Position numbers and translations under genes: made by a program. Below are positions 21,001 to 48,680 of a stretch of 64,000 bases of DNA, piece by piece. This stretch comes from Candidatus Omnitrophota bacterium (GTDB lineage: Bacteria; Omnitrophota; Gorgyraeia; Gygaellales; Profunditerraquicolaceae), in the NCBI GenBank assembly GCA_028716705.1, contig JAQUPI010000003.1:7737-71736 (forward strand). Reading direction: 5' to 3'. The notes under the pieces are model-generated. The model was not told where the DNA came from. It ran no database searches and worked only from the letters and a program-made list of their open reading frames with translations. The number at the start of each line of letters is the position of its first letter. Positions within the stretch are counted from its first letter, which is position 1.

Positions 21001-24000
21001 TCCAAGGTTCGGAGATTATCTGCCGGAAGAAGAGATATACTCGGTTGAATTCATACCGGGAGCGGATCTGGCAGGAATGTTGCGGCAAAAAGACATCCTG
21101 GAGCAGAAGAAGCGGCATTTAAAGGAGCAGGCGATAGTCCTTGCTCTGCAATTAGCCAAATCTCTGGGAGAGGAAGACCATGCGCTGGAGTTCCTGATAG
21201 AGATGAGGAATCCGGCTAACGTCATGTTCCGCGATGCCGGAGGAAAATGCGAGCAGCCGGTTTGCGTCGATGTCGGATATTTTACGACCAGGGAGCCGCG
21301 CGAAATAATGCTTACCCTGGGAAATTACATAGACGGCATCTATTTTGGGAATAAGGAACCGCAAGAGTTTTTATTTAACGCGGTTTTAAAAGCCCTGGGT
21401 GACGAAGAAGGCTGCGCTTTCCTTAAACAGGCGTTTGACAGCAAGCTTAATTATCACATAAAGGAAGAATTAGACGCGTATTTGAATAAGAAGACCGGAG
21501 TGAGTCTTCAGAAAGAAAAGGTCACCGCTATCTTTAAGGCCATGGCGAGGGGTAGGGCCGCTCCTGCCAACGCTGCCTTCAAGCAGCTCTGCAGGGACTT
21601 CGGTTTTGACCACCGCGACGCGAATGCCGGGCTAAAAGCGTTGATCATCGGGGTAAAGAGAGGTTTTATCGCGGAAAAACTGGATATAAGGCATCTTTCG
21701 GGAAAGATAAGCAAGATAACGGCGATAACCGGGATGCCAATAGAGATGGACATAAATAATTTAGAGAATGACATAATTGACTTGATAGATGCCGGTTATA
21801 CGGAAGAAAAAATAACCATGGAACTACTTATAGATAACGCTTCCTTGGAAGATTACATAAAGCGGATCAACGATAAATTAGACATATCGGCCAGACAGGT
21901 TCCTGAGGCCGAGGTCATAAATTGGGGTAATGAAAAAGAAGATGACGAAGTTCCTCTCTCCCAGGATGAAAAAAAGATATTAAGGGCAAGAGGCAATTCT
22001 TTGAAAGAGATGATGCCTGAGTTAAATATGGGCGGAGCCCAGATCAGCAATCTCATTTCCAGTATTTGCATTAAATTACAGGCGAACAGTTTCTCGGAGG
22101 CAAGAGAGAAATTCTTCTCCTCAGTAAAAGCGTATGTTATAAGCAAGGGGTGCCACTCGCTCATAGCCGAAGAGGTAGTAAGAGACGCGGATCCCCTGAA
22201 AACATCCCAAGTCCTTATGAACGAAAAACAAAAACTGACCGAGCAGGGTTATACGCTTATTTTAGCTTTATTCCTGGCGATAAGAGAAAGAAATTCAAAT
22301 AAGGTTGTGACGCAGGGATTAAAAGAAGCCATAAAAGAATCCTTTGCTACCGGGAATCCCAAGTGCGGCGATTTCCTTAATGAACTCTGCGATATTGCCG
22401 GCAAAGAGCGCATCGTCAGCGAAATAAAAAATATATTATTAACGGACATGGAAATACTGGAAAGGCTCTGCTCGGAAGAAACCCTGTCCAGATTAAATGC
22501 GTTAATTAAAGGTATCGCTCCGCAGATTGTCCTCAGGACAGCAAACCAGGTACGCATTTTAAAAGAAGTCGTGGCTTCTTCCAAAGCTAAGCAGGTATTG
22601 ACTCAGAAAGATATAGCCGGGAAGATCGGTGTTTCCACGGCTACCGTCAGCCGGGACATAAAGATCCTTCAGGAATCCGGATTTATCGATGTCCGCAAGA
22701 TCATCATTGAGAAGAGGGTTTATCTCTTCGGCCAGGCCCCCGAGTTCATCCTTAATGATGCGGAAGGGGCGATCATGAAAGAGTTGGAAAGGGCGAATTT
22801 ACCTTTATCGGCCCGTGAGCTGGCGAAAAACACCGGCTTACCCAAGAACAACATCCGCAGGAATACCAAAAGCCTCAAGAAAAAGGCACCGGTCAAAGAG
22901 GTTCTGATCAATAAGAGCGTCAAATTTTACCTGGGAGATAAACTTCCTAAATTTATCCTTACGCCTATCGAAAAGCGGATCCTGGAAATACTCTGGAGAA
23001 AAGGCCCTTCGACGCAAAAAGAAATAGCCGGGGATGGGATATCAAGCGGCATGGTCAGCGTTTATGCTAAAGAATTAAAGAGTTGGGATTTGATCAAGGC
23101 GCAGGGTGAAGGCAGAAGCAACGTTAAGCTTAGCTTGACTCCGGAAGGAGCGAAATTTATAGCGCCTGAAATAAAGTTCGGAGTGGCGCAAGGTAATATA
23201 GGGGATAAGAAAGTTTATTATTTTGCGGACGGAATTCAGAATGAAGATATGCAAAACGTATGTTTCTTCCAGGGCAACATGATAAAGATATCCGCTGCCG
23301 CTGACAAAGGTAACAAGCTGCCCTTATCAAAAGAATCATTGTCTTTAAGAATCGCGTCTGTAATGGATAAGTTATATGGCTTTACGAGCCTGAAAGAATT
23401 ATCGGGTATCTTAGGCATACCCGATTCTACGCTATCTCCTTACATGAAGCGCTGTTTCAACAGGATAAACAGCAGGCGCAGGAAAAAAGAAGAGCCCGTG
23501 TACCGGGTCTACAACGATAATACGGTGCAGGCGATGAGAAGCGTGATCGCGGTGCTCAAGAAATGGGGAAGGATAACCGTGGAAGAACTGGCTCTGCAAT
23601 TAAGCCAAGGAAATAGATGCGTAGAGAAGAAACAAGTCATTTCCATCGCCGCGAGGATCGATTTTGCCCTGGTGAACTGGTGCATGGTCAAAAACAATGA
23701 AGAGACGATAGGGATCCAGGGGCTTGAGCCGGTATACAACCGCAATAATACGCAAGAAATACTGGCAGGGTTAGGCAAAAAATTCAGAAAAATATCCATG
23801 AAACAGATAGCGGACGCTTTAAGAGGCATGCCTGAATCTAATGTCAGGCGTTTGATAGAGGCGATGCAAAAGGAAGGCACTCTTCCTTTTGAGGAGATCA
23901 TCCCTTACGAATCGGTGCGCAAAGACATAGTATTTAAGGCGATGGAGGAATTGTCCGCGGAGCGGGCCTCCGGATCATCCGCCAAGCAAATAACTGAAAG

Positions 24001-27000
24001 GGCGATAGCCATAGGTTCGGCATTAGGGGTGCCCATATCAAAAGATATCTCGCTAAGGAAGATACGCGCGATAAAAGAGGAAGGTGTGTTGCCGGCCAAG
24101 ATCATCTCCCATCCCAGGACGCAACAACCGCTCCGCAAGGCCAAGACGCCGAAGGTAAAGGCGCGTAAAAGCACTAAGAAAGCGATAGACCTCCGCTCAG
24201 CCGGCGTTTCAGCCCGGGAAGTACCGCTGGTTAAGCCGGCTGATCAGCCCGTACAGGAGCGTGACGCCGCTTGGTATGCGAGCAAGGATTTTGAGGTCGG
24301 GAAAGAAAGAAGGAACGGCTCAGCGCAAAACGGAAATAGAAATACTCTGCCGGAAAAGAATGTGACGATATTTATAAAACAAGTAAATAAAAAGGTGGAA
24401 TTTTCCATAAAAGAAGCGCTTATCTTGATCGCCAAAGGGTATTCGGCTAAAGAGATCCGCGAAGAGATCGGCAACGGCTTGCTTGAAAATCATATCACGT
24501 CATTCAAAATAAGCATCTTTGTGAAATTAAAAGATACGGGCCTGAGGATTATCGCGGAAGATACTTTGGAGTCATTAAATATGGCCAGGACTATATGTTC
24601 GGGACCAGTAAGAGAAGAACTCATAAAACGCGGATATCCATTGCCCGAAAAGCTCGCGGATAAACCGGCCGTATCAATAACCAGCCAGCCCAGGCAGGCA
24701 GGATTTTACGTTAACGGAGTGTTAAGGGCCCAATTCACCGATGCGGTTGATCCGGAAGATTGCTCTGCCAGGCGCATGCTAAGCGGGAATGGAACCTATA
24801 TCTTTGATGCGGGCTGCTTCTGGAGCGCGAGGATAGAGTATCTAAGGAAGATAGGGGCGATGCTTCCGCAGAATAATCAAAGGAAGCGGTGCTTGTACAT
24901 AGCTTCTGCCGCGGACTATTCTACGGCGCAGATAGTATCTGACGGCGCGAAAGAGACTATTTTTGTGGAAAAACTTCCCTTTGAAGGCGTGGCCGGGTTT
25001 CCCGAAGAGGAATTAGAATATTTCAAAAATTCGTACCATATGCAAGGTTTTGACAGCAACTTCCATCACGTATGCAGCCTCGGAAAAGGGATAGGTATAA
25101 AACAGTACCTGCTCTGGGAGCTTGAAGCGATGGGGGTTAAGACGCAAGCCGTAAGCGTTGAATTTGACACAGCCTTAAACGCGCACAGGATGAAATTTAC
25201 TGTCCCGGGCGCATCGCAAGAAAGAAGCATCCTCTATTTTAATACAGAGGCGGAGGCCATAAGCAGGTACCCGCCGTTAGTTGACCTTATCCGCGAAGGG
25301 TTGGATTCTTTTATTATAAAAGCCGCGGTAGATGTTTGTCTCAGCGATGAAACCATAGGTCTGATAGTTACCTCTATGAACCCTGACGGGATGATGTTCT
25401 TAGACGCGAATTTTGCCTTTTTCAGCGGATCCCTGGAGTGGTTAAACGAGGAACAAATGCGGCAGATCAGGGCCTTAGAGAGGGGCCATGGTTTTGCTTT
25501 CGGGTACAAAGAGATAATCCTGGCCAGGCCCAGGAAGCTTTGGGGAATAGGGCCCAGGAAGGCGGGATTTTATATTAATGGGAAACCTGCCGCGCAATTC
25601 ACAGATGCGGTTTCAGAGGATGACGCAGGTTCGGGGCAGCATGGAGCGCAAGGTTCTGTAGGCCCGTCTGCGCACAAAGGGTTAAGGGCGATATGCTTAT
25701 CATTGATCCTTATCTTGTTATCAGCCCGCGCGGGCGCAGTTAATGCGATGATCGACCTGGCGATCCCCATGAAATCCGCCATAGCGAATACTGTTTCCAT
25801 CGAAAGCCTGTCAGTAGATAACGCGACGGTCGGCGAACGCTTCGCCCATAAAGTCGTTCCATGGGATAGGTTTAATGTGTTGGACAGGCCTGTCTCGCTT
25901 GAAGAAAAGGCCCTTTTGAGAAAGTTTTCGCAACCATCTGCCGCCTACGATAATAGCTTCACGCAGCTAGTAGATAAAATATTTGAGAAAGAAGGGTATA
26001 CAGACAACCGTTTAAAGGAGATCGGCAAGGACGACCCGAAAAAACTGGTTCAGCTTATTGCGGAAATTGTCTACAGGAATGTCCAGTACGATCATACAGC
26101 GTTAAAGGCATCGCAAAAATACAATAAGATTTTTACCGCCAATCTTGGCAATAATAATTTAACAGCTCTGCTTGAACAGGGGTTGACCGCGGAAGAAAAA
26201 ACCTTATTAAACAGAAATCTGACAGAAGTCATTAAAGAAGGCGGTTTATGCGATGATATATCCGGAGTATTTTCAGCCGTCGTCGATTATATGCAAAAGA
26301 AGAACGTATTGACTCAAAATTTATATGCCAATAATTTTACCGGCATAAAAATTGATTCCACGAACCCGATGGCTTATCCTTATACAAAAATAGGCTGGCA
26401 TGAATGGAATAGGATATTTACGCTGGACGAATCCGGAAACCTTATATCGACGCATATCGATATAACAATATATAGCCCTTCTTTGACATGGCTAGATTCG
26501 GTTTTAACATTCAAAAAATCCGGATTAAACGCCGTTGATATAAACCACCGCATTAATATGGGTGTATTGTCCGATAAAGGTTTCAAAACAGAGAGGAATC
26601 TGCATTTAGATAATATCCGCCGATATTTTGCGTTCATAAACTCTACCGTTTCCTACGATCCTAAGATACTTTTGCCGATGCATGTACGAAGAAAAGGCAA
26701 GGTTTCTTCAGTTCCCGGCAAAGGCGAACCGGAAGAAGAACCTTTATTCGATAAATTTAAATGTTACAAAATAGAAGATGACGGCAGCCTTACTGTAAGT
26801 TCTGACTACGGATCTTATCAGGACAACATAAAAACAGGGTTGTCCAAATATTCAGAGAAAGTATTTTGCGTTATGGGGATTAACCGGGTTGTCCTCGCGG
26901 AAGTTTGGCCCGGCCTGAATATCAGCTCGCGCCGCTACTGCGATTGCGCAGGCATAGTGATCAAAGACGGGACATGGATGATCGTATTCCACGTATTATC

Positions 27001-30000
27001 CAGCCTTCTCAGAAAGGCCTGGCCGAATATCCTAAAGATCTATAAAGATCGCGCATCCAAAAACGCGGAAGCAGTCATATTTGGTATCGAGCAGGACGTC
27101 CGCTGGATGAAGAAGAATACCCCCCCTGGCGTAAAAATCATTAAAGAAAAGATTAATGCCTATCCTTCTGAGGCGTACGACCTGTACACGGATGCCGATG
27201 AAGGGGTATTGGCAAGAAGCATTAAAGGCCCTTCCGGGATAGAACTGGAAATATATAGAGACGAATTCAGGTTCACTAACATCGCTGAAAGGGATCCTTA
27301 TTCCGAAGACAGAAGCGTCATGGCGGAGGACCTTAAGGAAAATGGCATAAATGACGAAAGAGTATTATCTGCGATCAGAAATATCCCGCGCCATGAATTT
27401 GTCCCTGAAGAAGAGATGAAAGAATGCGCCTACCTTTACGAGAACAGGGCTTTGCCCATAGGCGAAGGCCAGACTATCTCTTCCGCCAATACGGTTGCCA
27501 TGATGACCCAGGCCCTGGGATTAAAAGAAGGCGACAGGGTCCTTGAGGTCGGCACAGGCAGCGGATACCAGGCAGCGGTCCTCGCAGAAATGGTGGGCAA
27601 AACCGGCAGGGTTTACACTATAGAAATAGTAGAGGCATTGCAAAACAGGGCAAGGGATCTGCTGTCCAAGCTTGATTATGACAATATTGAATATAAAGCT
27701 GCCGATGGGTATGAGGGATGGGCCGAAAAAGGGCCGTTTGACGCCATTATCATTACAGCTGCTTGCAGCGAGTATCCATTGCCTTTGATCGGGCAACTAA
27801 GAGAAGGCGCGAATTTAATCTTCCCGCTTGATTCGGGGATCGAAAAGCTTTTGGTCATAAAGAAGGCAGGCAAAGATTTAGAGGTAAGCACTTTAGCAGA
27901 GCGCATTAAATTCGTGCCTTTCGTAAGAGGCGCGGTAAAACTATATCCGCGGCCAGTCCAAACATATAAGAGAACACTCTTTGACGAAAAAGAGTATCTT
28001 TCAGCGAAAAAAGAAGCCGCGCAGAAATTAGCCAAATTAGACCCCCAGGAAGCAATATCTACATTCATCCAAGTTATAGAGAATTCTATTTCTCCTTTGT
28101 CAGAAGTACTGCTGGAACTGGCAGGAAATATCGGCACGCCGGAAGCGGTCGCATTCATTATAAAAGCGTTAAACAACAGGACCATGTCTGTCAGGCAGCA
28201 GGCTATTTCACTTCTGGAGAAGTTTGAAGATGAAAGGATCTATGGGGCATTATTGCCTGTTATTTGTACAGCCGGTGAATCCCTCGTACAGGAGGCGATC
28301 CGCGTGCTCTATTCCAAGAAAGAAAATCCCCTGTACAGAAAAGAAATATTAAAAGCGGTTATCAGCCAGGATCCCGCAACGCGCTTTGGCGCGGCGACTA
28401 TGCTTGCCACGATCATCGATGATGAAACAATGCGGATGTTGGATTTACTCGCCAAATCTGATCCGCAGGAGGAAGTAAGAAAACACGCGAAGTTCGTATT
28501 GGTTTGCGTACAGAGCAGGCTTGAGGAAGACAAATTAACCGCAGGGATAAAATTAAAAGAGGACAAGGTATTATCTCTTATAGATTCGTTCGCTTTTGAA
28601 AAGAAAGCGCCGCTTAAAGCGATCGATATCGGTTCGGGAGCGGGGGAATTCAGGCGTAGAATAAACATCCTTTGGCAGGGAAGGGAGATAGACATTGAAT
28701 GCGTGGATTCAAATAGCGAAGCGGCAAAAATAGGGTTTATCCATTATGGCATGCCGATATTGATAAGGAATGCCGAAGATCATATCTTTGAAGAAAAAAG
28801 TTTTGATATCGCCTTTTTAAACTATCCTAATCCGGGCTACATGAAAGTGTTAAAATTGCTCCCAGAGGCCGAAAGGATACTGCGGGATGGAGGTTTATTC
28901 TTTTTTGCCAGCAGCCGGGACGATTACCAGCCTGAAGAGATAAAGGATATATTGTCAAGGTCGCATTTTGAAATAATAGCTCAATACAACGGAAAAGAAA
29001 ACATACCGGCGGGCTATCCGCTAAGCCAATGCGCGGAGCAGGCAGTTGCATCCGGCAATATCGGTCCGGAGATGGTCTATCTTATAATTGCCCGCAAAAA
29101 TCGTACAGAGCTGTTATTAGGTTCGGGCGCTGTCAAAGATCATCTGAAGGATCCGGGGATTTTATCCGCCAGGCAGGCAGGGTTTTACATTAACGGGCAG
29201 TTAAGAGCGCAATTCACGGATTCGATTTCTGAAGAAGACGCTGCCGTTGGAGATCGCCGGTTCCCGCAAGATCGATTGAGCCCGGGTCCCCAGGTTCCAG
29301 ACGTTGAGATTATCAGGCTCTTATCCGGCAGCGATACGAAAGAGATAGATAGGGCGCTTGAAATCATGGAAAGCATTCACGACCCGGAAAGGGTATCGTC
29401 AATTGTAGAAAAGGTATTTGCCAATCGCCGGCTGGAGCCGGTATTTATGGAGGAGGATAACACATTGGCAATAATCGGGGAAAACAGGAGCCATAAGGGC
29501 ACTTATGAGATCGCGGAATTACAGGGCGAAGATCCATACGTTCATTTCTATAATGCCTGGATATCCGAAGAATTAAGAGGCAAGCGTATCTTGCCGTTAT
29601 TACTGCGTTGGGCAGCCGCTCATGGTTCCTTCCGTAAATTTTCCGGATGGCGGACAGAGGTGGATAACGCCAATTATATGTCAGCCAGGGCTTGGTGGCG
29701 CAGCGGATTTACTGACATCGAACTATTTGAAAGGGAAAGCAAAGAGCCGGTCAGTTCGATAGAGGAGCTTAAGCCTTCAGAAAAACGCTATATTGTAAAA
29801 GCCAGATTCCCGTTATGGACAAAACAGGCCGGCATACCGAATGTGCCTTTTGATAAAGGCGCGGTACGCTTGACATGCAACTTGGGTAACATGCTTCCGG
29901 GCAGTGTAAGCACGGCTTATTTGGCTTTTCCCGATCCCGGTGACCTGCGAGCGCAGGGAAAAGGATTCGCGGAATGCGCTTACAGGATCTTAAGAGAGGG

Positions 30001-32797
30001 CGGAGAGTTTTTGATATATTACGAGGTGCCGATGTCTTCAGCCGCCGTATTCTTATATGAAGAGAACATAGAGGGATTTGTAATATCCCTGAAAAAAGCG
30101 GGCTTTATTGTAGAAGGGCCGGAACATATCCTGTCTTCTGTGAATTATGCCGTAACCATAAGAGCTAAGAAGCCGCGGAAGGAAGACTCAATTTCAGCAA
30201 AAGCGCTGCGGGAGAAAGCCGTCCCGATCCTTTATGATCTGGGGTATTCAAAAGGATCCCTGGATCCGCTGCTAAAGGAACTTGAGACCCTGTTCAAGGA
30301 GATCGATGCCAGAATGGGGCTGGCCAGGCTTCAAAATGAATTAAGCCAGGCCCTGCAAGCGAATAATGCCGCGCGTCTTATAGCCCCTCTTAACGGATTG
30401 AATTCGCTGTTTGAGGAAAACAACTATAAGAACGTTTACCGTCCAAGGCCGATAATAAATCTATTGATCAACGGCTTAAACGCGGAGGATATCTTTGAGC
30501 GCATAATGCAGACCGAGATCCCGACCATGCTCAAGCTTAAAGCCAATGAAACGCTCATTTCCTGCACTGCCATTTCCCAGCTGGGTTACACCGTTTTGAG
30601 GTCATTGGGCGTGGATGCCAAGGGAGCGATCTCCCCAAGGCACGCTTTCCTCGGAATGGAGCTTAGCGGCGGCCGGGTCCTGTTCATTGATTTCTACAGG
30701 AATATATTCCGTGCGGTCAATATCGCCAGGTATTACAGGAAAGAAGGGGTGTATTTTGTCCTTAAGGAAAAATACAGGCTCAGCCGGAAGGAGTTAGGGG
30801 GGATTACGGAAAGAGTTGCCGCTGTTAAGGGCGGAGAAAGAATAACTGTGGTAGAGAGTTTGAGAGGCAACAAACTTCTGCATTGGAAGTTCTTTTACAT
30901 TAAAATGATCAGTTCCGGGGGAGTTTCCCGCCTTATCCATAACAACCTGGGCCTGGCTTACGGGACTCTAGGCATCTATAATGAAGCGATCTTGGCCTGC
31001 AAAAAAGCCATAAGATTGGACCCGAATTACGCGGATGCCTACAACAACCTGGGGATCATTTACGCCCACCTGGGGCAATACGATAAGGCTATCACGGAAT
31101 TAAGGAAGGCAAAGAAATTGAATCCCAACGATAACGGCATCATTTCCAACTTGGATAAGCTTTATGGTATGCAGGGCGGGATAGGCAAAACCAGTTACCT
31201 GGCTGAAGGCGAACCGCTGGGCATAGACACCCCGGCCGTATCTTTAAATAAGATGTTATTAGGCTGGGCAGGAAGATACAGCGAAGATGAGATTTTGATG
31301 CTGATAAAAAAAGCCAAGGCAGAAAAACGCATAAAGAACCCGGGGCTTAAGCTTGGATTACGTTTATGGATGGCGCAAATACGAACCAACACTTTATTAG
31401 AAACCCTGGCCAAACAAGGGCGGATCGCGGGGCCTCCTTTTATCAAGGGTTTCCGGTTGATCATGAATGAGAATAACGCGCTGACATTCGGCGCTTACAT
31501 CAAACAAGGCATCCTTTATATCGAGCAACCCCTCCTTCAAGACCGTTCCCTCGAAGAGATCATCCTGCATGAAAAAATCGAGATTGTTGCCAAAGACCAT
31601 GCGATAGCGCAAGGCCTGACAAGAGAAGTTCTCACCACTTCGCTGCGCGTACATACATCTAATATCAGGCATATCATTGGCACGGTGCTTAAGCACCGTT
31701 ATTTCCCGCTGTCGATTTTTATTTCCATGATCGCGTTTACCGCCCTAATTTTTACCTACAGGGACACGATTATAAATTTGGGCGTTTTTGATTACCGGCT
31801 GGCGGCATTCCTTACTTCGGCAGTGACTAATGCCACCGTTTTTATTCCGGACACAGGCCTTGTTATAATCCTTTCCCTGGCCGCGGCGTATAATCCTGTT
31901 ATAGTGGGGATTATGACCGGTTTGGGAGCGATCACAGCATTGCTTATGACCTATTTTGGAGGCCGCATTATCCGTTCTTTAGTAAAAGGAGACCGCATAG
32001 ACCGTATCGAGCAAAGGGTAAATCACGGGATAGAGAAACGGGGATGGCTCTTTATCCTATTCGCTTACGGCATCCCCATACCTTCTCCCCTTCCTGAGAT
32101 CACGGGCATAGTAGCCGGAGCCACGAAGTTTTCCATTTCCAGATTCCTTATGTTTATCGTATGCGCTACGGCGGGAAATGTGATAAAAAGCGTTTTTTAC
32201 GCCTGTATCGGCGCATGGCTGTTGAATTTATACGGGCCTGCAGTATTGAACTTTTTCAAGGAGAATGTGCTTATCTTCGCGCCTTTAGCGGGAATAGCCG
32301 TGATCTTCATCGCTTTTGTAGCGATCTTAAAGCTGGTCCCGGAAATAAAAAGGATCCCCGCGTTTGCGTCTATAGACAGGTTACTGACAATTGAGGGCAT
32401 AAAGTTGTTGTTTGAGAAATCCGGGCAAGGCATAAGGATTTCGAAGATAAGCGTAAAGAAAATCAGCATAAAGCCGGTCAGGATAATCATAAAGGGAATA
32501 AGGATCAGGGTCAGGCCGTTGAAAATAAAGGTCAGGGCGCTCAGGATAAAGATCAAAAAGTTAAGAATAAAAGTAAAGAGGCTAAAGATAAGTATAAAGA
32601 AGCTGATTATAAAGAAGGGGGGGATTTCGGAGAACCGGGAAGAAAAAGCCTGCCCGGAAAATAATACAAAAAGAACGCAGGAGAAAACTAATAACCAGGA
32701 CCTTGCCATCGAAAATCTGAGCAATGGTATGGAATCTATGCAGGGAGGTAAGACGGCGCAGATAGAGAATGCCACGGTTATTTCCAGCCGGATATAA
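2..32797 (+). CDS. Giant multidomain protein, 5'-partial. The reading frame is open from window position 2. The first start-like codon in the window is GTG at 185. More than 10,930 aa lie in the window.
   Basis: Continuous stop-free frame for 32.7 kb in ~50% GC DNA. Many recognisable protein motifs occur in this single frame (listed as sub-features). The frame is still open at the window start, so the true start lies upstream. Confidence 0.9.
   Translation, partial: [10931 protein letters not shown]
440..960 (+). other. Domain in giant ORF: class I SAM-dependent methyltransferase fold
   Basis: Motif I '[12 protein letters not shown]' (glycine-rich SAM loop) followed by an acidic residue ('VEIDE') and a post-II region, in the usual Rossmann order. 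Confidence 0.6.
5692..7240 (+). other. gpmI: Domain in giant ORF: 2,3-bisphosphoglycerate-independent phosphoglycerate mutase (iPGM/GpmI-like), apparently full length
   Basis: '[10 protein letters not shown]', '[22 protein letters not shown]', '[10 protein letters not shown]', 'TSHTLNPV' and the C-terminal '[23 protein letters not shown]' match the iPGM family signatures in correct order over ~515 aa. Confidence 0.85.
7255..7790 (+). other. Cluster of ~4 predicted transmembrane helices inside the giant ORF, immediately after the iPGM domain
   Basis: Hydrophobic stretches '[40 protein letters not shown]', '[16 protein letters not shown]' and '[17 protein letters not shown]'. Confidence 0.5.
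10175..10198 (+). other. CxxxCxxC motif (radical-SAM-like [4Fe-4S] cluster motif) in the giant ORF
   Basis: In-frame 'C-S-V-Q-C-D-Y-C'. It is a single motif and no further radical-SAM landmarks were recognised. Confidence 0.3.
17300..17935 (+). other. Domain in giant ORF: RelA/SpoT-type HD ((p)ppGpp hydrolase-like) domain
   Basis: '[14 protein letters not shown]...[10 protein letters not shown]' and downstream '[13 protein letters not shown]' mirror the SpoT/RelA HD-domain blocks ('GEPYI.HPL.VA', 'LLHDVVEDT', 'IKLADRLHNMRTL'). Confidence 0.6.
20000..20470 (+). other. Domain in giant ORF: CHAT / caspase-like (clan CD) peptidase-like segment
   Basis: '[12 protein letters not shown]' (His block) and '[14 protein letters not shown]' (Cys block) resemble the His/Cys dyad motifs of CHAT domains. 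Confidence 0.35.
22580..23150 (+). other. Three helix-turn-helix / winged-helix DNA-binding-like motifs inside the giant ORF
   Basis: '[30 protein letters not shown]' (DeoR-like HTH), '[24 protein letters not shown]', and '[39 protein letters not shown]' (MarR/TrmB-like wHTH). Confidence 0.45.
26238..26475 (+). other. Domain in giant ORF: transglutaminase-like cysteine-protease core (C...H...D)
   Basis: '[17 protein letters not shown]...[23 protein letters not shown]' shows the Cys / His-x-Trp / Asp spacing of the transglutaminase-like superfamily. Confidence 0.3.
27340..27935 (+). other. pcm: Domain in giant ORF: protein-L-isoaspartate O-methyltransferase (PIMT/Pcm)
   Basis: '[15 protein letters not shown]', '[19 protein letters not shown]', '[19 protein letters not shown]' and 'GRVYTIEI' match PIMT blocks in order. 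Confidence 0.8.
28045..28515 (+). other. HEAT-like helical repeats in the giant ORF
   Basis: Repeated '[25 protein letters not shown] / [10 protein letters not shown] / [13 protein letters not shown] / EEVRKHA' helical-pair pattern typical of PBS-lyase/HEAT repeats. Confidence 0.45.
28600..28990 (+). other. Second class I SAM methyltransferase-like domain in the giant ORF
   Basis: '[11 protein letters not shown]', an acidic residue at 'IECVDS', and 'FDIAFLNYP...[10 protein letters not shown]' are in the usual motif I / II / post-III order. Confidence 0.45.
29461..29735 (+). other. GNAT-like acetyltransferase segment in the giant ORF
   Basis: '[41 protein letters not shown]' resembles the GNAT motif A region (R/Q-x-x-G-x-G/A-like with the following helix). 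Confidence 0.3.
30925..31160 (+). other. TPR repeats (about 2.5) in the giant ORF
   Basis: '[63 protein letters not shown]' fits the canonical 34-aa TPR consensus. Confidence 0.7.
31690..32365 (+). other. C-terminal multi-pass TM block with DedA/SNARE-associated-like signature in the giant ORF
   Basis: Several hydrophobic helices plus '[48 protein letters not shown]', which resembles the DedA/TVP38 family core. Confidence 0.4.
32400..32625 (+). repeat. Periodic K/I/R-rich low-complexity tail near the C-terminus of the giant ORF (in-frame ~9-nt periodic DNA repeat)
   Basis: '[60 protein letters not shown]'. The DNA shows repeated AGGATAAAG-like units. Confidence 0.8.
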
Positions 32798-32848
32798 AAT
32801 TGGTTTTAAAAATAGGATTAATTAACAAATTTAGAGGAGGTGAGAAGG

Positions 32849-34916: not shown

Positions 34917-37900
34917 ATTAAATAGAAAACAATTAAAAAGGAGAATGAAAATGAACGCAGGGAATTTCCACAAGAGTTTATTGGCCAGGATAATGAGCCT
35001 TATCATTATCGTAAATTTCATTATTACCACCGGCCCTGTGAGCCTTTACGCGCAGGACATGTTGAAGGCGCCGTCAGCGGTCCAGAAAAATGACAGTCCT
35101 GTCCAGAATTTGATCGACGATCTCAGGGCGACGCAGGCAGGCCGTGAAATAGCCGCCTTTAAACGGATCGGCATACTCACCAGCGGCGGCCCGGCTTCCG
35201 GACATAACGCGGCCATTTACGCGGCAGTCGAAAAAATGAAAGAGCAGGGCATAGAGGCAGTGGCGATCCTGGACGGTTTTGACGGATTATACGAGGAGAA
35301 ATTAGTCAGCCAGGCACGGCCCCTTAGCCTGGAAGAGGCAAGGTCCCAGCGCAATAAAGGCGGGACAATGCTCGGTACTGACCGCATGAACCCCTTTGAG
35401 GCTAAAAATGTCGCAAACGGAGTTCCGCAGGCGATCTGGACGAATATCCAGAAGCTGAAACTGGACGGCTTGATCGTTCTCGGAGGCAACGACAGCCAGA
35501 GCACGTCTTATAAATTACAACAAGAGCATCCGGATTTCCCGATCATAGGCCTGGCTAAGACTATGGATAATGATCTGGCTTTACCTGAATTGGATGCTTT
35601 AACCTACGGTTTTGATACTTTTGTCAGGGAAACCACAAGGGCCCTGATAAAAATGATCCGCGATTGCCGCTCTATGAGAAGGATCGGGGTGGTTGAGGTA
35701 TTCGGCAGGAGCGCGGGGCATGTAGCGTTGCACGCCGGAGCCAATGTCAGGGCAAGCCGTACACTTTTACCCGAGGAAGGCAACCTTGATCTAGAGCAAC
35801 TGGTGAGCGACCTTAGAGAGAGCAAAAATAATGATAAATACAGAGCAGCCTTGTTAGTAGTTTCAGAAGGCATAAGTATAAGCAAGGATTACAAGAATAA
35901 CGCAGGCATATTGGAAAAAGCTTTTGCCGAAGACGAAGTGGCCAAGGCGGCTTTTGAAAAGGCGGTTAAGGGCGCCAAAAAAGATTCCTTCGGTAATCCT
36001 AAACTGGAGAATACCGGGAAAATCATCGCCGCGGTCTTGCGCTCGCAGGGTTTAGCCGTGAGCGAAGACCAGGTTAAATACATCGCGCGTTCGGCCAACC
36101 CTTCAAAGTTAGATATCGCCATGACAGAGCTTATAGGCCGCGCGGCGGTAGAAAATCTTTTGCAGGGAAACCATGGCCGCATTTTATACGCCTATAACAA
36201 TCAAGCCAGGTCTATCCCGTTCGCCTCGGACGTGGGGGGCAGAGTAGCGGACCTGACAGGGCATAAGCAGCTGTATTTAAGGGCGAACCAGGCCTTTGAT
36301 ATTAAGGTATCGGATAAGCCGGCTCTGAATTTTGCGAATACGGCTGAAGTCAATAGCGCGATAGCCGGCATATTGGCTGTCAGCGACAAGGCTGTCAGCG
36401 TGCTTGATGAAGAACGCCTGAGGAGCCAGCTTATTGATAACCTGGTTTATGACGCTACATTCGGCAGCGATAAGGAAGTAGTTAAGCTTTGCCGCCGGCT
36501 CATTAAAGACACCGCAGCCGCCCAAGGCGCGGTGCTCGGTTCTGTTTATGAGCTTTACAGGGCGAAAGCGAAAGATAAAAAACAATATACAGTCCCGGCG
36601 ATAAATATCAGGGGCATGGGTTACAATACCAGCAGGGCGGTATTCGCCTCAGCCATAGATAACAATGCCGATAAGTTCATCTTCGAGATCGCAAGGAGCG
36701 AGATAGGTTATACGGCTCAGCGGCCGGCGGAACTAGTTACCTCCGTTTTAGCGGCGGCGATCAAGGAAGGCTATAACCTGCCTGTATACCTGCAAGGCGA
36801 TCATTTTCAGGTTACGCTTAAGGACTATACGGCAAGCCCGGAAAAAGCAAAAGATTATATTAAAGGGTTGATCCGCGAGGCGATAGAAGCGGGCTTCTAT
36901 CAGGTAGACCTGGATATGTCACAACTAGTGGATTATACCAAGGCCGATGTTCAAGAGCAGCAGGAACTGAACTACAAATTAGTGGCTGAACTTACCGCTT
37001 ACGTGAGGGATTTGGAAAGGGAATTAGGTTTAGACAGAGCGGGTATCGTTGTTAATTTGGGCGGTGAAATAGGAGAGATCGGCAAGGGCTTAGCCGAAAA
37101 GGACCAGAAGAACAGCACCGTCGCGGAATTAAGGGCGTTTATGGACGGTTACAACGCTGAATTAAAGCGCCTCAGCCAGGAAAAAGGATACGAGCTGAAC
37201 CCTATCACAAAAATCGCGATCCAGACCGGCACTCAGCATGGCGGCATCAGAAACGCCAAAGGTGAATTGGTCAGGGCCAAGGTTAGTTTTAACGCCATTG
37301 CCGAACTCGGTAAAGTAGCCAGGGAAGAATACAGCCTGGCGGGCGTAGTGCAGCATGGCGCGTCCACCCTTCCCGAAGATAATTTTACGCTTTTCGCGGG
37401 CAACACCCCGGAAGGCCTGGTTATTGATGAAAGCCTTTTGAATGAGGCTTCTAAAAATATATTGAGCACCAACCCCGCCGCCGAAGTGCATCTGGCTACG
37501 GCTTATCAAGACACGATCATCGATCATCCCAGGATGCCCGCTTCTATGGTTTCCCAAATGAGGGAATACATTTTCAGCAAAAATCCGGTTAAGGAAAACC
37601 AGAACGCGGACGGAGTCTTTGTTTCCAACCGCAAAAATGTTTGGGGCCCGTTCAAGGCCCAGGTATGGAACCTGCCTGCTGGCGTGCAAGAAGCTATGCG
37701 CGACAGCCTGCGCGGACAATTCGACGTGGTCTTTAACAATATGGGGGTGAAGAATTCATCCCAGGCGCTTATCGCGCAAAAGGCCTCCGAAAAGGCAAAG
37801 CTTGTTAAAACAAGACTGGCTATAAATAACCCCGGTGGGCAAGAACGGGAGCTTATCAGGCTTTGGCTGGCAGGCAAATCCGCCGGTATCGACTTAGTCG

Positions 37901-40900
37901 GCGTAAACGGTATTTCTCCGGGCAGCCTGTATTATCTTTTAACCAAGGATTTCACCGCCTCCCCGGATGTCAGGGCATGGTTCACCGCTAATTTCACTTC
38001 GCTGCCGGAAGGCATAGGCGACAAAAACAAGAAACTCATTCTGCCTGTCACTGAAATTATCGACGCTAAGGACTTGCCTTGGAAGAAATTGAACCCGGAT
38101 GTCGTGCTTGAGGGTTCGGATCCGCAGCTGGCGGCCAGCCATAAGAGCCAGGGCGCGAAATCCGTCATTGTTGCCCACCCGGCTTTAACCGCGGTCAGCG
38201 CCTTAATGCCGGTCATTTCCGTCATGGGCGACCAGATCAAAGGCATCAATTTTACGGATATCCAGCCGCCTACGCCTTTACAGCGCGGCCTTGATAATTC
38301 CGGTCCGGACCCGGTATTGATGCGGGCCATGGGGATTAACCTCGTTCCTTCATTAAGAAAGGACATAGACAAATATGTGCAGGCATTATGCCCCGCGGAT
38401 CTAGCCGCGCATATAAAGGGCGCGATCAATTTTGCGCCTCAGGCGTTAGGTTCATTGCTGGACGTTCATATAGTCGTAAATAAAGATACTGACGCCGCGG
38501 CTATAAATAAACTGTTCAAGGCCGCGATCGAAGGCGTTTTAAAAGGCAAGGTATCTTACTCGCAGGATTCCTCTCTGGTATCCGTGGATACTTACCAGCA
38601 GCCGCAGCTTATCTTCTTGGCCAACAACACGAAGGTTACCGGGAAGAGGATCGTGCATTTACAATTCATGCACAATGAGGAGGCGACCTTTGCCGCGACG
38701 CAAGTACCTTTATTACTGCAGGCGCTGAAGGAGGGAAAAGCCCCCTCGATTATTACATCCAAAGATACTCAAACTATCTCCGCGGACGCTCAGGTAGTCT
38801 TGGATATCATCCAGGCAGAGCAGTCTAAGATGGCCAGGCCCGCGTTCCTGGGTACCAACCTGGCTTTTATTCCCGCTCTCGACGGCAACGTCAAGCCGCG
38901 TATCGTAGTTCGCGGCAAGGCCGTTAGTCCCGCGATCGTAGGTATAAACGGTCCCGGAAGAGTGGGCAGGCCTTCGACCTGGGCAATGCAGGGGGACCCG
39001 AATGTCGACCTGAGGATGATCAACGGTTCTTCCAGCGCTTTGATCCTGTCATGGTTATTGTCCGAAGATTCCGTGCAGCAGTCAATATCAAAGCCGGTCA
39101 CAAGAATAGTAATAACCCCCGCGCAGTTAAAGAGGGAAGTTTCCTCTCTGCTGGGCAGCTACAGTATCGAGCAGGTAAACGGATTCTTGACCGGCCTGCT
39201 TAGCTCTCAAAGATTATACCTGCTTAAAGAAAAAGAAGAATTCGTTCCTTACATCAAAAACCTCCTGGCCTCTTGGGGCAAGCCCAGTAATGAGCTTGAT
39301 TCCGCGGCCAATTGGTTGCTGAAGAGCCTGGTAGGCGTTTTAGATATTAACGGTAAAAAAGTCCTGGTAGTTAACGAGAGAAAAGCGATCACGGAACTTC
39401 CCTGGGACGTAGCAGGCATAAAGACGATCATGGAGTGTACCGGGGATCTGAAGAACGCTGACGAAGCCAGGCAGCATCTGGCGCATATTTCCGGAGGCAA
39501 GGTGATCATATCCGCTCCGGCCGAAGGAGCAGGCCAGTCTATCGTCTTGGGCGTAGTAGAGCCCAGCCGCGCTGCTCAGATCGTGGATAATGCCAGCTGC
39601 ACCACCAACTGTTTAATGCCTATGGTCGCGGTTTTGAATAAGGCATTCGGCGTGCTCATGCAGGAGATCACCACTGTCCATGCTTATACCACCGACCAGA
39701 CTTACGCCAGACAGGCAACACATAAAAAGGAAGCTACCCGCGGGAGGGACGCAAGGACGAACAGCCTTCCCGGTTCTACCGGAGCTGCCAAAACCGCCGC
39801 CGTTATATATCCGGACCTTGCCGGAAGGTCCGACGGTTGGGCAGTGCGCACGCCTCACGTCACCGGTTCTGCCGTAGCCCTGACCGCTACACTTAAGGGC
39901 AATGTGACCAAAGAACAGATACAGGCGGCGTTTAAGAGCGCCAGCGAAAAGGAAATGGCCGGGATCATGGCTTATACCCAGGCCCCGATCGTTTCTTCAA
40001 TGATCATCGGCAACCCGGCTTCCAGCATCATTGACGGTAATGCCATTGAAATCATCAGCTACGACGAAGAACTTGACCAGACCACAGCCGGTATTACCTC
40101 CTGGTATGACAATGAATATGGTTTCTCAAACCGTATGGTGAACCTTGCCGTAGCCCTGCAAGGCTTCTCTTTGATCAAAGGGAAAGCCCTGGCAGACATA
40201 GGCCCCAAAACCGTCGAGTTATTTGAAAACAAAATAAAAGAGATCTCTCCTGCCACGGTAGTCTGGAACGGGCCGATGGGCGTAGTGGAAGTTGCGGCTA
40301 CGAGCAAGGGTACTGACGGAGTGGCCATGGCGATCACCGCCTTAGGCGATAAAGTAGTTAAGGTTGTGGGAGGGGGGGATACCTTAAAGACGCTTTCGGA
40401 AGAAGAACGCGAGAAATTCACGCACGTCTCAACCGGCGGCGGCGCCTTCCTGGAGGCATTTCAATTCGGCGTGGATAATCTCCCGGGGATTAAGGCCCTG
40501 ATCGATCCTTCCACGGGCAAGATGGCGACGATGGACGGGCTCCTGCCGGTTTTGAAAGAGGGAGATACCGTCTTGATACGAGTTGACTTCAACGTGCCTT
40601 TGGATTCGCAATTAAAAGTAACAGATAGCACCAGGATCAAAGAAACAATGGTTACCATAAGGCCGTTGTTAGAGAAAAAGGCCAAGGTCATCCTGATGAG
40701 CCATTTAGGCCGGCCTAACGGGAAATTCGACGCTAAGCTTACCATGAACCCGGTGGCTTATGAACTGCAGAAACTCTTGCTAAAAACCAAAGTACATAAA
40801 TTGGATGACTGCGTGGGTAAGCCCGTGCAGGATTTTATCCAGAATACGGTAAAGCCCGGTGAAGTCGTAATGCTGGAGAATACCCGTTTTCGGTTAGACG

Positions 40901-42408
40901 AAGAACAGAATGCCTCTGGTTTTTCAAAGGATTTAAGCCAGCTGGCCACATATTACATTGATGACGCCTTTGGCACCGCGCACCGCGCGCATGCTTCGAA
41001 CGGCGGCATTACCTCAAATTACGCCTGGGGCAAGAAGTTCGCTGGCAGGCTTCTGGAGAAAGAAGAGCAGTATCTGAAACAGGTCTGCGAGAGTCCCAAG
41101 GAGCCCATGGTCGTAGTTTTGGGCGGAGGCAAGGTCAGCGATAAGATACATATCATCAATACCTTGAAACAGAAAGCGTCTGCTTTCCTGATCGGCGGAA
41201 GGATGTCTTTGGCATTCTTGGCAGCTCAGGGTCAGCAAGTCGGTGATTCCACGCCCGATAAACTTGACGTGGATACCGCCAAACGTTTCCTCGCCGATCC
41301 GCAGTTAAAAGGCAAGATCATTCTGCCGCAGGATAACATGGTGGTTACCGATATCTCTACGGGCGCGGACGCGACAGTTGTAGAAGGCAGTGTTGAGCCT
41401 TCGGATATGAGCGCGTTCCAGGAACAATTCCTGGCTTACCTTAAGTCTTATGTTGCTCTTGAAAGCGCGGAAGGAAAAGCGCTCGCTGCCGTCCAGAAAG
41501 CTGAAACCGAAGCCAGGCGGCTTATAGGTCTTCCCACCGCGCCAGAAGCTGCTCCTACTGTAACTCAGGCGGCAGTCGATCCCGCTCAATTAAGGTTCGG
41601 CGAGGCGAATGGTTTCCTTACTCCTGAGTCGCAGGCCAGAAACAAACCGGATTTCCAATATACCATGGGTTTTGGGGATGCCGCTAATTCCTACAGACCA
41701 GCCTCTGATTTAAGCCCGGCACTGCTGGTTCCCGAAGGCACCGTGTATACGGGAACTTCCGTGCTTTTCGGTAATTTCGCAAATGCCGTTAAGAATCGTG
41801 ATATAGCCGAAAGGGACGGCGCTGTCGTCATAGGGGCGAACGTGATATTGGAGAACGCGGGCTCTTTGACCAGCCTGAAGGCATTCAAGGATACAGGAAA
41901 AATCGTTGTTTATGCGCAAGACACTTCAACCCTGGAAGTTTTAAAAGCCATGGGGATAGATTCGGTAACGAAAAATATCATAAACGGGGAAACAAAAGGC
42001 GTCTCGATCGAGAATATCGCCATAGAATACAGCATGTCGGGCGAGACCGTCCTGGTTACCGCTCCCGTGGATCGTAAAGATATCAACTTAGGCAACATTC
42101 AAAAGGCTGGTGTCCGGATGTTGAATCTGGAGACGCCCAAAACTGAAGTAGGCAAGATAAACAGCATGCCGCTGGTTATCGCCAGGGCATTTGCCAGGAT
42201 TTACCAGGAAGACGCGAATGTGCCCAGGCAATTTAACACCTTAAGCAACAATTACGCAACGAAGAACCAGGTATTGGCGACAGATATCGAGAAGCTTAAC
42301 AACCTGGCTTCCCAGATCTGCGACGTGCCTTTAGTGCAGTTGAATATGGAGCAGGATAAAGAGATAATCGCGGCCCAGATGGCTTACCAGGCGGCCGTAA
42401 GCATATAA
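34906..42408 (+). CDS. 2500-aa fusion protein: N-terminal signal/anchor, then phosphofructokinase, class II fructose-bisphosphate aldolase, a ~400-aa unknown module, GAPDH, a circularly permuted phosphoglycerate kinase, and a conserved C-terminal domain
   Basis: Single stop-free frame. All four enzyme families are recognisable by their hallmark motifs in series (see sub-features). The start overlaps the upstream gene, which implies translational coupling. Confidence 0.9.
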   Translation: MKNRLNRKQLKRRMKMNAGNFHKSLLARIMSLIIIVNFIITTGPVSLYAQDMLKAPSAVQKNDSPVQNLIDDLRATQAGREIAAFKRIGILTSGGPASGHNAAIYAAVEKMKEQGIEAVAILDGFDGLYEEKLVSQARPLSLEEARSQRNKGGTMLGTDRMNPFEAKNVANGVPQAIWTNIQKLKLDGLIVLGGNDSQSTSYKLQQEHPDFPIIGLAKTMDNDLALPELDALTYGFDTFVRETTRALIKMIRDCRSMRRIGVVEVFGRSAGHVALHAGANVRASRTLLPEEGNLDLEQLVSDLRESKNNDKYRAALLVVSEGISISKDYKNNAGILEKAFAEDEVAKAAFEKAVKGAKKDSFGNPKLENTGKIIAAVLRSQGLAVSEDQVKYIARSANPSKLDIAMTELIGRAAVENLLQGNHGRILYAYNNQARSIPFASDVGGRVADLTGHKQLYLRANQAFDIKVSDKPALNFANTAEVNSAIAGILAVSDKAVSVLDEERLRSQLIDNLVYDATFGSDKEVVKLCRRLIKDTAAAQGAVLGSVYELYRAKAKDKKQYTVPAINIRGMGYNTSRAVFASAIDNNADKFIFEIARSEIGYTAQRPAELVTSVLAAAIKEGYNLPVYLQGDHFQVTLKDYTASPEKAKDYIKGLIREAIEAGFYQVDLDMSQLVDYTKADVQEQQELNYKLVAELTAYVRDLERELGLDRAGIVVNLGGEIGEIGKGLAEKDQKNSTVAELRAFMDGYNAELKRLSQEKGYELNPITKIAIQTGTQHGGIRNAKGELVRAKVSFNAIAELGKVAREEYSLAGVVQHGASTLPEDNFTLFAGNTPEGLVIDESLLNEASKNILSTNPAAEVHLATAYQDTIIDHPRMPASMVSQMREYIFSKNPVKENQNADGVFVSNRKNVWGPFKAQVWNLPAGVQEAMRDSLRGQFDVVFNNMGVKNSSQALIAQKASEKAKLVKTRLAINNPGGQERELIRLWLAGKSAGIDLVGVNGISPGSLYYLLTKDFTASPDVRAWFTANFTSLPEGIGDKNKKLILPVTEIIDAKDLPWKKLNPDVVLEGSDPQLAASHKSQGAKSVIVAHPALTAVSALMPVISVMGDQIKGINFTDIQPPTPLQRGLDNSGPDPVLMRAMGINLVPSLRKDIDKYVQALCPADLAAHIKGAINFAPQALGSLLDVHIVVNKDTDAAAINKLFKAAIEGVLKGKVSYSQDSSLVSVDTYQQPQLIFLANNTKVTGKRIVHLQFMHNEEATFAATQVPLLLQALKEGKAPSIITSKDTQTISADAQVVLDIIQAEQSKMARPAFLGTNLAFIPALDGNVKPRIVVRGKAVSPAIVGINGPGRVGRPSTWAMQGDPNVDLRMINGSSSALILSWLLSEDSVQQSISKPVTRIVITPAQLKREVSSLLGSYSIEQVNGFLTGLLSSQRLYLLKEKEEFVPYIKNLLASWGKPSNELDSAANWLLKSLVGVLDINGKKVLVVNERKAITELPWDVAGIKTIMECTGDLKNADEARQHLAHISGGKVIISAPAEGAGQSIVLGVVEPSRAAQIVDNASCTTNCLMPMVAVLNKAFGVLMQEITTVHAYTTDQTYARQATHKKEATRGRDARTNSLPGSTGAAKTAAVIYPDLAGRSDGWAVRTPHVTGSAVALTATLKGNVTKEQIQAAFKSASEKEMAGIMAYTQAPIVSSMIIGNPASSIIDGNAIEIISYDEELDQTTAGITSWYDNEYGFSNRMVNLAVALQGFSLIKGKALADIGPKTVELFENKIKEISPATVVWNGPMGVVEVAATSKGTDGVAMAITALGDKVVKVVGGGDTLKTLSEEEREKFTHVSTGGGAFLEAFQFGVDNLPGIKALIDPSTGKMATMDGLLPVLKEGDTVLIRVDFNVPLDSQLKVTDSTRIKETMVTIRPLLEKKAKVILMSHLGRPNGKFDAKLTMNPVAYELQKLLLKTKVHKLDDCVGKPVQDFIQNTVKPGEVVMLENTRFRLDEEQNASGFSKDLSQLATYYIDDAFGTAHRAHASNGGITSNYAWGKKFAGRLLEKEEQYLKQVCESPKEPMVVVLGGGKVSDKIHIINTLKQKASAFLIGGRMSLAFLAAQGQQVGDSTPDKLDVDTAKRFLADPQLKGKIILPQDNMVVTDISTGADATVVEGSVEPSDMSAFQEQFLAYLKSYVALESAEGKALAAVQKAETEARRLIGLPTAPEAAPTVTQAAVDPAQLRFGEANGFLTPESQARNKPDFQYTMGFGDAANSYRPASDLSPALLVPEGTVYTGTSVLFGNFANAVKNRDIAERDGAVVIGANVILENAGSLTSLKAFKDTGKIVVYAQDTSTLEVLKAMGIDSVTKNIINGETKGVSIENIAIEYSMSGETVLVTAPVDRKDINLGNIQKAGVRMLNLETPKTEVGKINSMPLVIARAFARIYQEDANVPRQFNTLSNNYATKNQVLATDIEKLNNLASQICDVPLVQLNMEQDKEIIAAQMAYQAAVSI
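35160..36235 (+). other. pfk: Domain: 6-phosphofructokinase (PFK-A family; residues suggest a PPi-dependent type)
   Basis: 'RIGILTSGGPASGHNAAI', 'LIVLGGNDSQST', 'GLAKTMDNDLALPELDALTYGFDT' and 'EVFGRSAGHVALHAG'. The D in GGNDS and the K in AKTMDND correspond to the Asp/Lys pair typical of PPi-PFKs. Confidence 0.8.
36580..37650 (+). other. fba: Domain: class II (metal-dependent) fructose/tagatose-bisphosphate aldolase
   Basis: 'YTVPAINIRGMGYNT', 'LPVYLQGDHFQV', 'YQVDLDMS', 'IQTGTQHGG' and 'VVQHGASTLPED' correspond to class II FBA blocks. Confidence 0.65.
38895..40160 (+). other. gap: Domain: glyceraldehyde-3-phosphate dehydrogenase
   Basis: 'IVGINGPGRVGR', 'GGKVIISAP', 'IVDNASCTTNCLMP', 'TVHAYTTDQ', 'SLPGSTGAAK' and 'WYDNEYGFSNRMVNL'. 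Confidence 0.9.
40190..40510 (+). other. pgk: Domain: the last ~105 residues of PGK (nucleotide-binding half), placed upstream of the PGK N-domain
   Basis: 'DIGPKTVELF', 'VVWNGPMGVVEV', 'VVGGGDTL', 'HVSTGGGAFLE' and 'LPGIKAL' are normally the C-terminal blocks of PGK. Confidence 0.85.
40565..41395 (+). other. pgk: Domain: PGK N-terminal (3-phosphoglycerate-binding) domain through the hinge and the first part of the C-domain
   Basis: 'LIRVDFNVPL', 'ILMSHLGRPNG', 'VMLENTRF', 'YIDDAFGTAHRAHAS', 'VVLGGGKVSDKIHIINTL' and 'FLIGGRMSLAFLAAQG'. Confidence 0.9.
41740..42405 (+). other. Conserved ~222-aa C-terminal domain of unknown function, shared with the next ORF
   Basis: 'VYTGTS..GNFA', 'GxNVILENAG.xTSL', 'VVYAQD', 'KINSMPL.I.RAF' and 'LNNLASQ.CDVPLV.L' align colinearly with 47470-48138. 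Confidence 0.8.
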
Positions 42409-48629: not shown

Positions 48630-48680
48630 GCGCAGTTTCCGGCGACAGGAACCCTTAACCTCTTTGGGAAAATTGATAGT

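Follow-up and report, generated by a model that had tools for sequence, protein, structure and literature searches.

Does a fused glycolytic protein of the Omnitrophota conceal an unusual triose-phosphate isomerase (TIM)? The question is raised by a 64,000-nt stretch of contig JAQUPI010000003.1 from a Candidatus Omnitrophota bacterium (the window), in which a single ORF (open reading frame) encodes a polyprotein of glycolytic enzymes. As shown by Pfam and NCBIfam, its modules follow in the order signal or anchor segment, phosphofructokinase (PFK), class II fructose-bisphosphate aldolase, a module that we call X, glyceraldehyde-3-phosphate dehydrogenase (GAPDH), phosphoglycerate kinase (PGK) and a C-terminal domain. 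The original prediction pointed to about 400 residues between the aldolase and the obvious GAPDH (positions 37700-38890, aa 932-1328 of the ORF), where TIM would stand in pathway order. It described them as free of any assignable motif and proposed a non-canonical isomerase or a scaffolding or linker domain. The stretch is real, lies inside the single ORF and has the flanks claimed for it. However, X is a conserved pseudo-GAPDH domain, a rare variant on the known pseudoenzyme theme.

Far from being free of motifs, X carries degenerate GAPDH motifs along its length (AINNPGGQER, LPWKK, DVVLEG, HKSQGAKSVIV and INKLFKAA..G.LKG). When the X region alone was scanned with Pfam, Gp_dh_C matched at 34.3 bits (E 2.1e-8), above its gathering score of 24.4, and Gp_dh_N at 25.5 bits (E 1.6e-5), just under its gathering score of 31.7. 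A phmmer search of the PDB returned 109 sequences at E<=1, and all 60 listed were GAPDH or erythrose-4-phosphate dehydrogenase (E4PDH). The best match among those listed was Thermotoga maritima 1hdg (E 4.5e-14), whose two lobes were each matched separately. The NCBIfam GAPDH/E4PDH models matched X at 1e-15 to 1e-11, but with 45-58 bits where the equivalog cut-offs are 367-616; TIGR01534 gave 52.7 bits (cut-off 367.2) and PRK07403 57.8 bits (cut-off 616). When the family profile of X, built from three orthologues, was compared by hhalign with 19 canonical GAPDHs, the probability was 99.8% (E 8.9e-29) over 282 columns. All homology lay in the forward frame, and the antisense ORFs across the X region had no support.

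An AlphaFold2 model of X, built from a GAPDH multiple sequence alignment (pLDDT 78.9, pTM 0.76), has a Rossmann-like lobe and a GAPDH catalytic-domain sheet. With Foldseek its top 50 PDB matches were all GAPDH or E4PDH (E ~1e-25, TM-score 0.66-0.77), and there was no TIM barrel among them. A second model, whose alignment consisted mostly of X orthologues, gave the same secondary-structure pattern. In the module, aa 968-1092 are what remains of the NAD domain and aa 1093-1275 what remains of the catalytic domain; the latter lobe is the better preserved relative to canonical GAPDH. X is thus homologous to type I GAPDH over both lobes, shares its predicted fold and keeps its structural core motifs (LPWK, DVVLE, H..GAK.VI, INKLFK and LVS.D); it differs in having only ~25% identity, replaced catalytic and cofactor residues and a 33-residue deletion. 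We regard X as almost certainly a degenerate type I GAPDH duplicate that keeps the two-lobed fold. A recent tandem duplication was considered and rejected, for the alignment between X and the GAPDH downstream of it is weak (BLASTP E 0.005, ~27% identity over 56 aa).

Residues were compared by HMMER alignment to 1hdg and by MAFFT (L-INS-i) alignments. As shown in Table 1, the catalytic cysteine, the general base and the dinucleotide motif of GAPDH are all replaced in X. Both Gly7 and Gly12 of GxGxxG are missing. The position of Asp32 is taken by Gly1002, that of Arg231 by Phe and that of Asn313 by Glu, and the Pi-site motif TGAAK (T208/G209) reads RKDID. The 33-residue deletion falls in the NAD domain (the '...IISNAS' segment), just upstream of the active-site helix and Thr1095. 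In the anion sites Ps and Pi, only the equivalents of Thr179 and Arg195 are retained. These inactivating changes are common to all three orthologues, and the Thr1095 and Gln1120 sites are identical in 3/3. Judged from its sequence, X is very probably inactive as a GAPDH and would be unable to oxidise glyceraldehyde 3-phosphate, because its losses take in the nucleophilic thiol, the general base, most residues of the phosphate sites and the NAD signature.

Relatives of the window protein were retrieved by searching 1.84 billion representative proteins exhaustively with HMMER, the query being aa 561-1760. Besides the window protein itself, two proteins matched X and the following GAPDH continuously. 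One is P0023 (3,600 aa, 63% identical), from an Omnitrophota metagenome-assembled genome (MAG; MCX5695737.1), and the other is P0024 (2,437 aa, 53% identical), from a JGI metagenome. When X alone was compared by phmmer with all retrieved proteins, P0023 scored 468 bits and P0024 337 bits, and all others <=50 bits. When 185,579 species genomes were pattern-scanned with a profile of the three sequences, P0023's MAG alone was found; the same scan with the single X sequence had no match, and a metagenome scan for X found only the contig of the window. On these scans the X family is rare, with three lineages found. A word-indexed homologue search, run with X alone and with the three-sequence profile, returned only ordinary ~330-aa GAPDHs at <=31% identity. 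It missed the window protein and its polyprotein relatives although they were present in the collection, and alone it would wrongly have implied that X is an orphan.

In all three carriers, a small sample, X stands immediately upstream of a GAPDH with a 95-aa insertion, which is followed by PGK. The order in P0023 is a 390-aa N-terminal region, X, GAPDH, PGK, further sequence, aldolase, a canonical TIM and enolase. In P0024 it is a 390-aa region, X, GAPDH, PGK and enolase. The 390-aa region before X in these two proteins is an unrelated one. X-GAPDH-PGK is a conserved cassette. The pathway-colinear layout on which the original prediction leaned is seen in the window protein but is not conserved, since the X module tracks GAPDH-PGK and not the aldolase in P0023 and P0024. 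In other relatives, canonical TIM and enolase domains are joined in differing orders, and module order is shuffled between lineages.

Among the motifs that are invariant or almost invariant in the three X orthologues are AINNPGxQERELIR, PALTAVxAL, FTDxQP and LQRGxDxxxPDPVxxR. The proportions of nonsynonymous (pN) and synonymous (pS) differences are given instead of dN/dS because synonymous sites are saturated (pS 0.62-0.84). As shown in Table 1, X changes as slowly as its active neighbours, and we consider it highly likely that it is kept by purifying selection and is not decaying. The suggestion of a scaffolding or linker domain survives in part: X appears to be non-catalytic yet selected, but as a degenerate copy of the neighbouring enzyme it is neither a simple linker nor an unrelated domain.

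Several readings of X have to be weighed. In the window protein alone its position would suit an isomerase between aldolase and GAPDH, and X keeps a remnant of the glyceraldehyde 3-phosphate site (Arg195 and Thr179 equivalents). The reported lack of the TIM block AYEPVWAIGTG was borne out, X showing no similarity to TIM in sequence or profile, the catalytic Lys12/His95/Glu165 included, and the window as a whole yielded no TIM: PF00121 did not match X at E<=10, nor any scanned ORF, and six-frame phmmer searches of the 64 kb with a relative's canonical TIM domain and with an E. coli TpiA query found nothing. Such an absence is uninformative on the remaining genome. X is homologous to GAPDH and is modelled with the GAPDH fold, not with a (beta/alpha)8 barrel, and hhalign of X against the canonical TIM domain of P0023 gave a probability of 0.3%. 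That canonical domain (254 bits, with IVAYEPVWAIGTGK and AYEPVWAIGTG) lies in the same chain as X, so X does not replace TIM. The relatives in which TIM stands beside aldolase (P0034) or GAPDH (P0152, P0164 and P0170) use a canonical TIM in each case, and X is not next to the aldolase in P0023 or P0024. A non-canonical isomerase is extremely unlikely. No enolase was found in any frame of the window either; the TIM and enolase steps would have to be encoded outside it. A still-active dehydrogenase with alternative residues would agree with the predicted GAPDH fold, but in X neither the nucleophile position nor its surroundings hold a Cys, the His base is missing, GxGxxG, Asp32 and Asn313 are gone, and its NCBIfam scores lie far below the equivalog cut-offs; this reading is scarcely conceivable. 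The loss of all catalytic residues and of part of the NAD domain would also be expected of an inert relic of tandem duplication that acts as a mere spacer. Against this, X keeps 52-60% identity across lineages with saturated synonymous sites, its pN matches the values for the active GAPDH and PGK and is smaller than that of the true linker, its invariant motifs are long, and it is predicted to be well folded. We consider an inert relic very unlikely.

X might also have become a ligand-binding domain for glyceraldehyde 3-phosphate, 1,3-bisphosphoglycerate, phosphate or a nucleotide, acting as an allosteric regulator or as a relay of triose phosphate from aldolase to GAPDH. Mammalian hexokinase I and eukaryotic PFK are tandem enzymes with one non-catalytic half, and that of hexokinase I offers an analogy for a regulatory ligand-binding domain. 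The former cofactor and substrate sites are strongly conserved among the X orthologues (NNPGxQERELIR, PALTAVxAL, FTDxQP and the S-loop LQRGxDxxxPDPVxxR with Arg195), under purifying selection equal to that on the active enzymes. On the other side, most anion-site residues (T208/G209 and R231) and the Rossmann glycines are gone, as are the 33 deleted NAD-domain residues, and no ligand can be inferred from the sequence. A ligand-binding role is unlikely; it is compatible with a role of X as a partner or scaffold and does not exclude it.

We favour a role of X as a non-catalytic partner or scaffold of the adjacent active GAPDH. GAPDH acts as an obligate homo-oligomer, in which the catalytic-domain sheet and the S-loop build the dimer interfaces. 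In a chain whose N-terminus would be tethered and that has other enzymes to either side, the dead copy could supply the partner subunit, forming an intramolecular pseudo-dimer, that is, a fused 'prozyme'. Pairing with X would then stabilise the active GAPDH or position it between aldolase and PGK. The occurrence of X only immediately upstream of the insert-bearing GAPDH is consistent with a partner role. So are the tandem GAPDH pairs, there with both copies intact, of two other polyproteins (P0041 and P0052), the better preservation of the catalytic-domain lobe of X, and, as weak support for pairing, an AlphaFold2 model of the tandem (804 residues), which reached pTM 0.65 despite 166 disordered residues. 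X also combines three features of a prozyme, namely catalytic loss with the predicted fold kept, purifying selection, and co-occurrence with the active paralogue in 3/3. To the partner or scaffold function in itself we give nearly even chances. Weighed together, the identity and the mechanism of X as a selected pseudo-GAPDH partner are reasonably probable.

The following points weigh against this account. The alignment used for the first model of X biased it to the GAPDH fold. The figures on conservation come from only three sequences, whose synonymous sites are saturated. Contact between the X and GAPDH domains is presumed, and the alignment behind the tandem model had only 4 sequences. The equivalents of Thr179 and Arg195 survive together with the strongly conserved S-loop LQRGxDxxxPDPVxxR, which makes residual ligand binding possible. 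A fused partner is not a general requirement, since in the relatives P0152, P0164 and P0170 a lone GAPDH domain is fused to TIM. In a bolder version, X would be an essential fused prozyme whose pseudo-dimer forms possibly via the 95-aa insertion, and whose remnant pocket might take triose phosphate from the aldolase. This version is doubtful; if it is true, the protein would serve as an assembly line for glycolysis, either exported or tethered to the membrane, with the hand-off of substrates built into it.

The trypanosomatid AdoMetDC prozyme is a dead paralogue that partners an active enzyme (PMC6221367). X resembles prozymes in that it appears to be inactive, is under purifying selection and always accompanies an active paralogue. 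Unlike them, it is covalently fused to that paralogue within a multi-enzyme polyprotein, and pairing and activation would here be of the same kind only by analogy. The Omnitrophota-type polyproteins P0041 (GAPDH a-b-PGK-a-b) and P0052 (a-b-HEAT), which look N-terminally anchored like the window protein, also contain tandem GAPDH-fold pairs. Both copies in these proteins retain SCTTN and the catalytic His, unlike the dead first copy of the window lineage. The pairs in P0041 (aa 115-845 and 1335-2070) and P0052 (aa 318-1072) consist of two distinct GAPDH subtypes, one marked by an insertion of ~20 aa behind strand 2, the other by NGAGRISL; in P0041 the pair is present twice, around PGK.

Consecutive glycolytic enzymes on one chain are also found in the bifunctional PGK/TIM (NCBIfam PRK13962, Thermotoga type) and in the TIM-GAPDH fusions P0152, P0164 and P0170. 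TIM-GAPDH fusions occur in stramenopiles as well. The domains of these PGK/TIM and TIM-GAPDH proteins are canonical and active-looking, unlike X, and we know of no such fusion with a dead duplicate. Within the Omnitrophota, West-Roberts et al. (2023, bioRxiv 10.1101/2023.11.21.568195) described TIM, PGI, FBPase, PGM, aldolase and PPDK domains in giant proteins, the 'Archaeovorins', which were predicted to be extracytoplasmic. The window protein shares with them the phylum and the embedding of glycolytic domains in very large proteins. It differs in being a separate 2,500-aa gene made almost wholly of glycolysis modules. In the Archaeovorin section of that preprint, and on a search of its text for GAPDH, glyceraldehyde and phosphoglycerate, no GAPDH or PGK domain and no dead GAPDH copy is named. 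Beyond its remark on glycolytic domains, we found in the searchable literature no description of a dead GAPDH domain or of fused glycolysis in Omnitrophota.

Table 1. Features of the glycolytic polyprotein and of its neighbourhood, in positions of the window, with sequence conservation where it was calculated.
Feature	Residues (aa)	Nucleotides	Strand	Evidence or remark	Identity to P0023/P0024 (%)	pN
Whole polyprotein ORF, uninterrupted	2,500 aa	34906..42408	+	ORF list, translation, Pfam
Hydrophobic segment after basic N-terminus, signal peptide/anchor-like	23-47	34972..35046	+	Kyte-Doolittle scan
Phosphofructokinase module	87-417	35164..36156	+	Pfam PF00365 200.5 bits; NCBIfam PRK03202 197.9 bits
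Class II fructose-bisphosphate aldolase module	~557-946	36574..37743	+	Pfam PF01116 44.8 bits; TIGR00167
X, GAPDH-fold domain, very probably dead	965-1275	37798..38730	+	Pfam, PDB phmmer, NCBIfam, hhalign, AlphaFold2/Foldseek	59.6/52.3	0.245-0.308
Dinucleotide motif G7-F-G-R-I-G12-R replaced by N-P-G-G-Q-E-R in X	975-981	37828..37848	+	alignments
Catalytic Cys149 (SCTTN) replaced by Thr in X (ALTAVSAL for ASCTTNxxAP)	1095	38188..38190	+	HMMER to 1hdg, L-INS-i
General base His176 replaced by Gln in X (FTDIQPPT for TTxHAYT)	1120	38263..38265	+	alignments
Conserved linker, ~67 aa (IITSKDxQxI ... RPxFL ... P..DG)	1276-1342	38731..38931	+	cassette alignment	49.3/41.3	0.35-0.43
GAPDH domain, competent-looking	1343-1756	38932..40173	+	Pfam; TIGR01534 258 bits; alignments	66.9/54.9	0.209-0.313
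95-aa insertion in NAD lobe of GAPDH	1386-1480	39061..39345	+	four helices predicted
PGK, circularly permuted	1757-2160	40174..41385	+	Pfam in 2 stretches; phmmer with non-permuted P0041 PGK	57.1/46.7 (N-part only)	0.268-0.338
C-terminal domain, ~245 aa	~2257-2500	41674..42405	+	no family match
10,870-aa ORF		185..32797	+	iPGM, DOT1-like and other methyltransferase, PCMT, HTH, TPR, HEAT and VTT domains
Small PilZ-domain ORF, upstream of polyprotein gene		32840-33178	+	domain scan
1,895-aa ORF, divergent pyruvate-phosphate-dikinase domains (N, mobile, PEP-binding)	78-1099 (domains)	42454-48141	+
Second PilZ ORF, downstream		~48300-48630	+	inferred from JGI contig gene call (L002 8327-8656)

The polyprotein is deposited at NCBI as MDD4939506.1 and MDD5552554.1, from a Candidatus Omnitrophota MAG, under the annotation 'phosphoglycerate kinase'. 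The JGI gene call on contig Ga0265297_10001711 starts at Met16 (34951) and gives 2,485 aa. The Kyte-Doolittle scan found no transmembrane segment in the polyprotein other than the N-terminal one listed in Table 1. A hydrophobic segment at the N-terminus was also found in P0023, P0041 and P0052; the start of P0024 is similar but under the scan threshold. The polyprotein depends on ATP and NAD, and cofactor supply would be a puzzle if its bulk were exported. The same puzzle was raised by West-Roberts et al. (2023, bioRxiv 10.1101/2023.11.21.568195). The C-terminal boundary of the aldolase was taken from P0023, which shares the C-terminal motif QFDxVxxNxGV and has it directly before TIM. The linker that follows X is partly predicted to be helical (helix 330-350 in the tandem model).

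The GAPDH downstream of X retains INGPGRVGR, SCTTNC, TTVHAYT, STGAAKT, VRTP and WYDNE. At the position of Asp32 it has Gly, which hints at a relaxed or NADP cofactor preference. Its 95-aa insertion is confined to the X-carrying proteins, namely the window protein, P0023, P0024 and a truncated P0031. In the adjoining PGK the C-terminal third stands ahead of the N-terminal two-thirds: normal residues ~316-407 correspond to aa 1759-1848 and the residues that should precede them, 13-301, to aa 1892-2154. P0023 and P0024 share this permutation and P0041 does not. The C-terminal domain had no Pfam, NCBIfam or PDB match, and it recurs at the extreme C-termini of the multi-enzyme proteins P0027, P0036, P0031, P0028 and P0033; it may serve in docking or sorting. 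The idea that this domain is the missing TIM was rejected, as it has no similarity to a known family in the three databases and no TIM motif.

The neighbourhood of the polyprotein gene fits the 'giant gene' theme of the Omnitrophota. The 10,870-aa ORF has long stretches without a family match and resembles the Archaeovorin class; its iPGM (cofactor-independent phosphoglycerate mutase) domain lies at nt 5699-7198. With it, the glycolytic set of the window comprises PFK, aldolase, GAPDH, PGK, iPGM and the pyruvate-phosphate-dikinase-like protein, of which ~800 C-terminal residues are without assignment. The PilZ ORFs that flank the polyprotein gene would be c-di-GMP receptors. A 507-aa ORF of the window had no significant family match. 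Further downstream are sugar ABC and MFS transporters, GH2-like proteins, and ROK and LacI regulators. In the genomes of P0023 and P0024 the polyprotein gene is surrounded by housekeeping genes, a setting that fits the polyprotein as the organism's main lower-glycolysis machinery.

These results remove the tempting false lead of a hidden non-canonical TIM and correct the annotation of a protein that public records label merely as a phosphoglycerate kinase. They also bear on how such loci are read. Domain counting with hidden Markov models would give two GAPDHs here though just one can be active, and would score TIM as absent at a locus whose relatives carry TIM fused. A conserved pseudo-enzyme domain is documented within a natural protein that fuses up to five steps of glycolysis, and the family offers a compact system in which to ask how obligate oligomeric enzymes fit into pathways fused as one chain.

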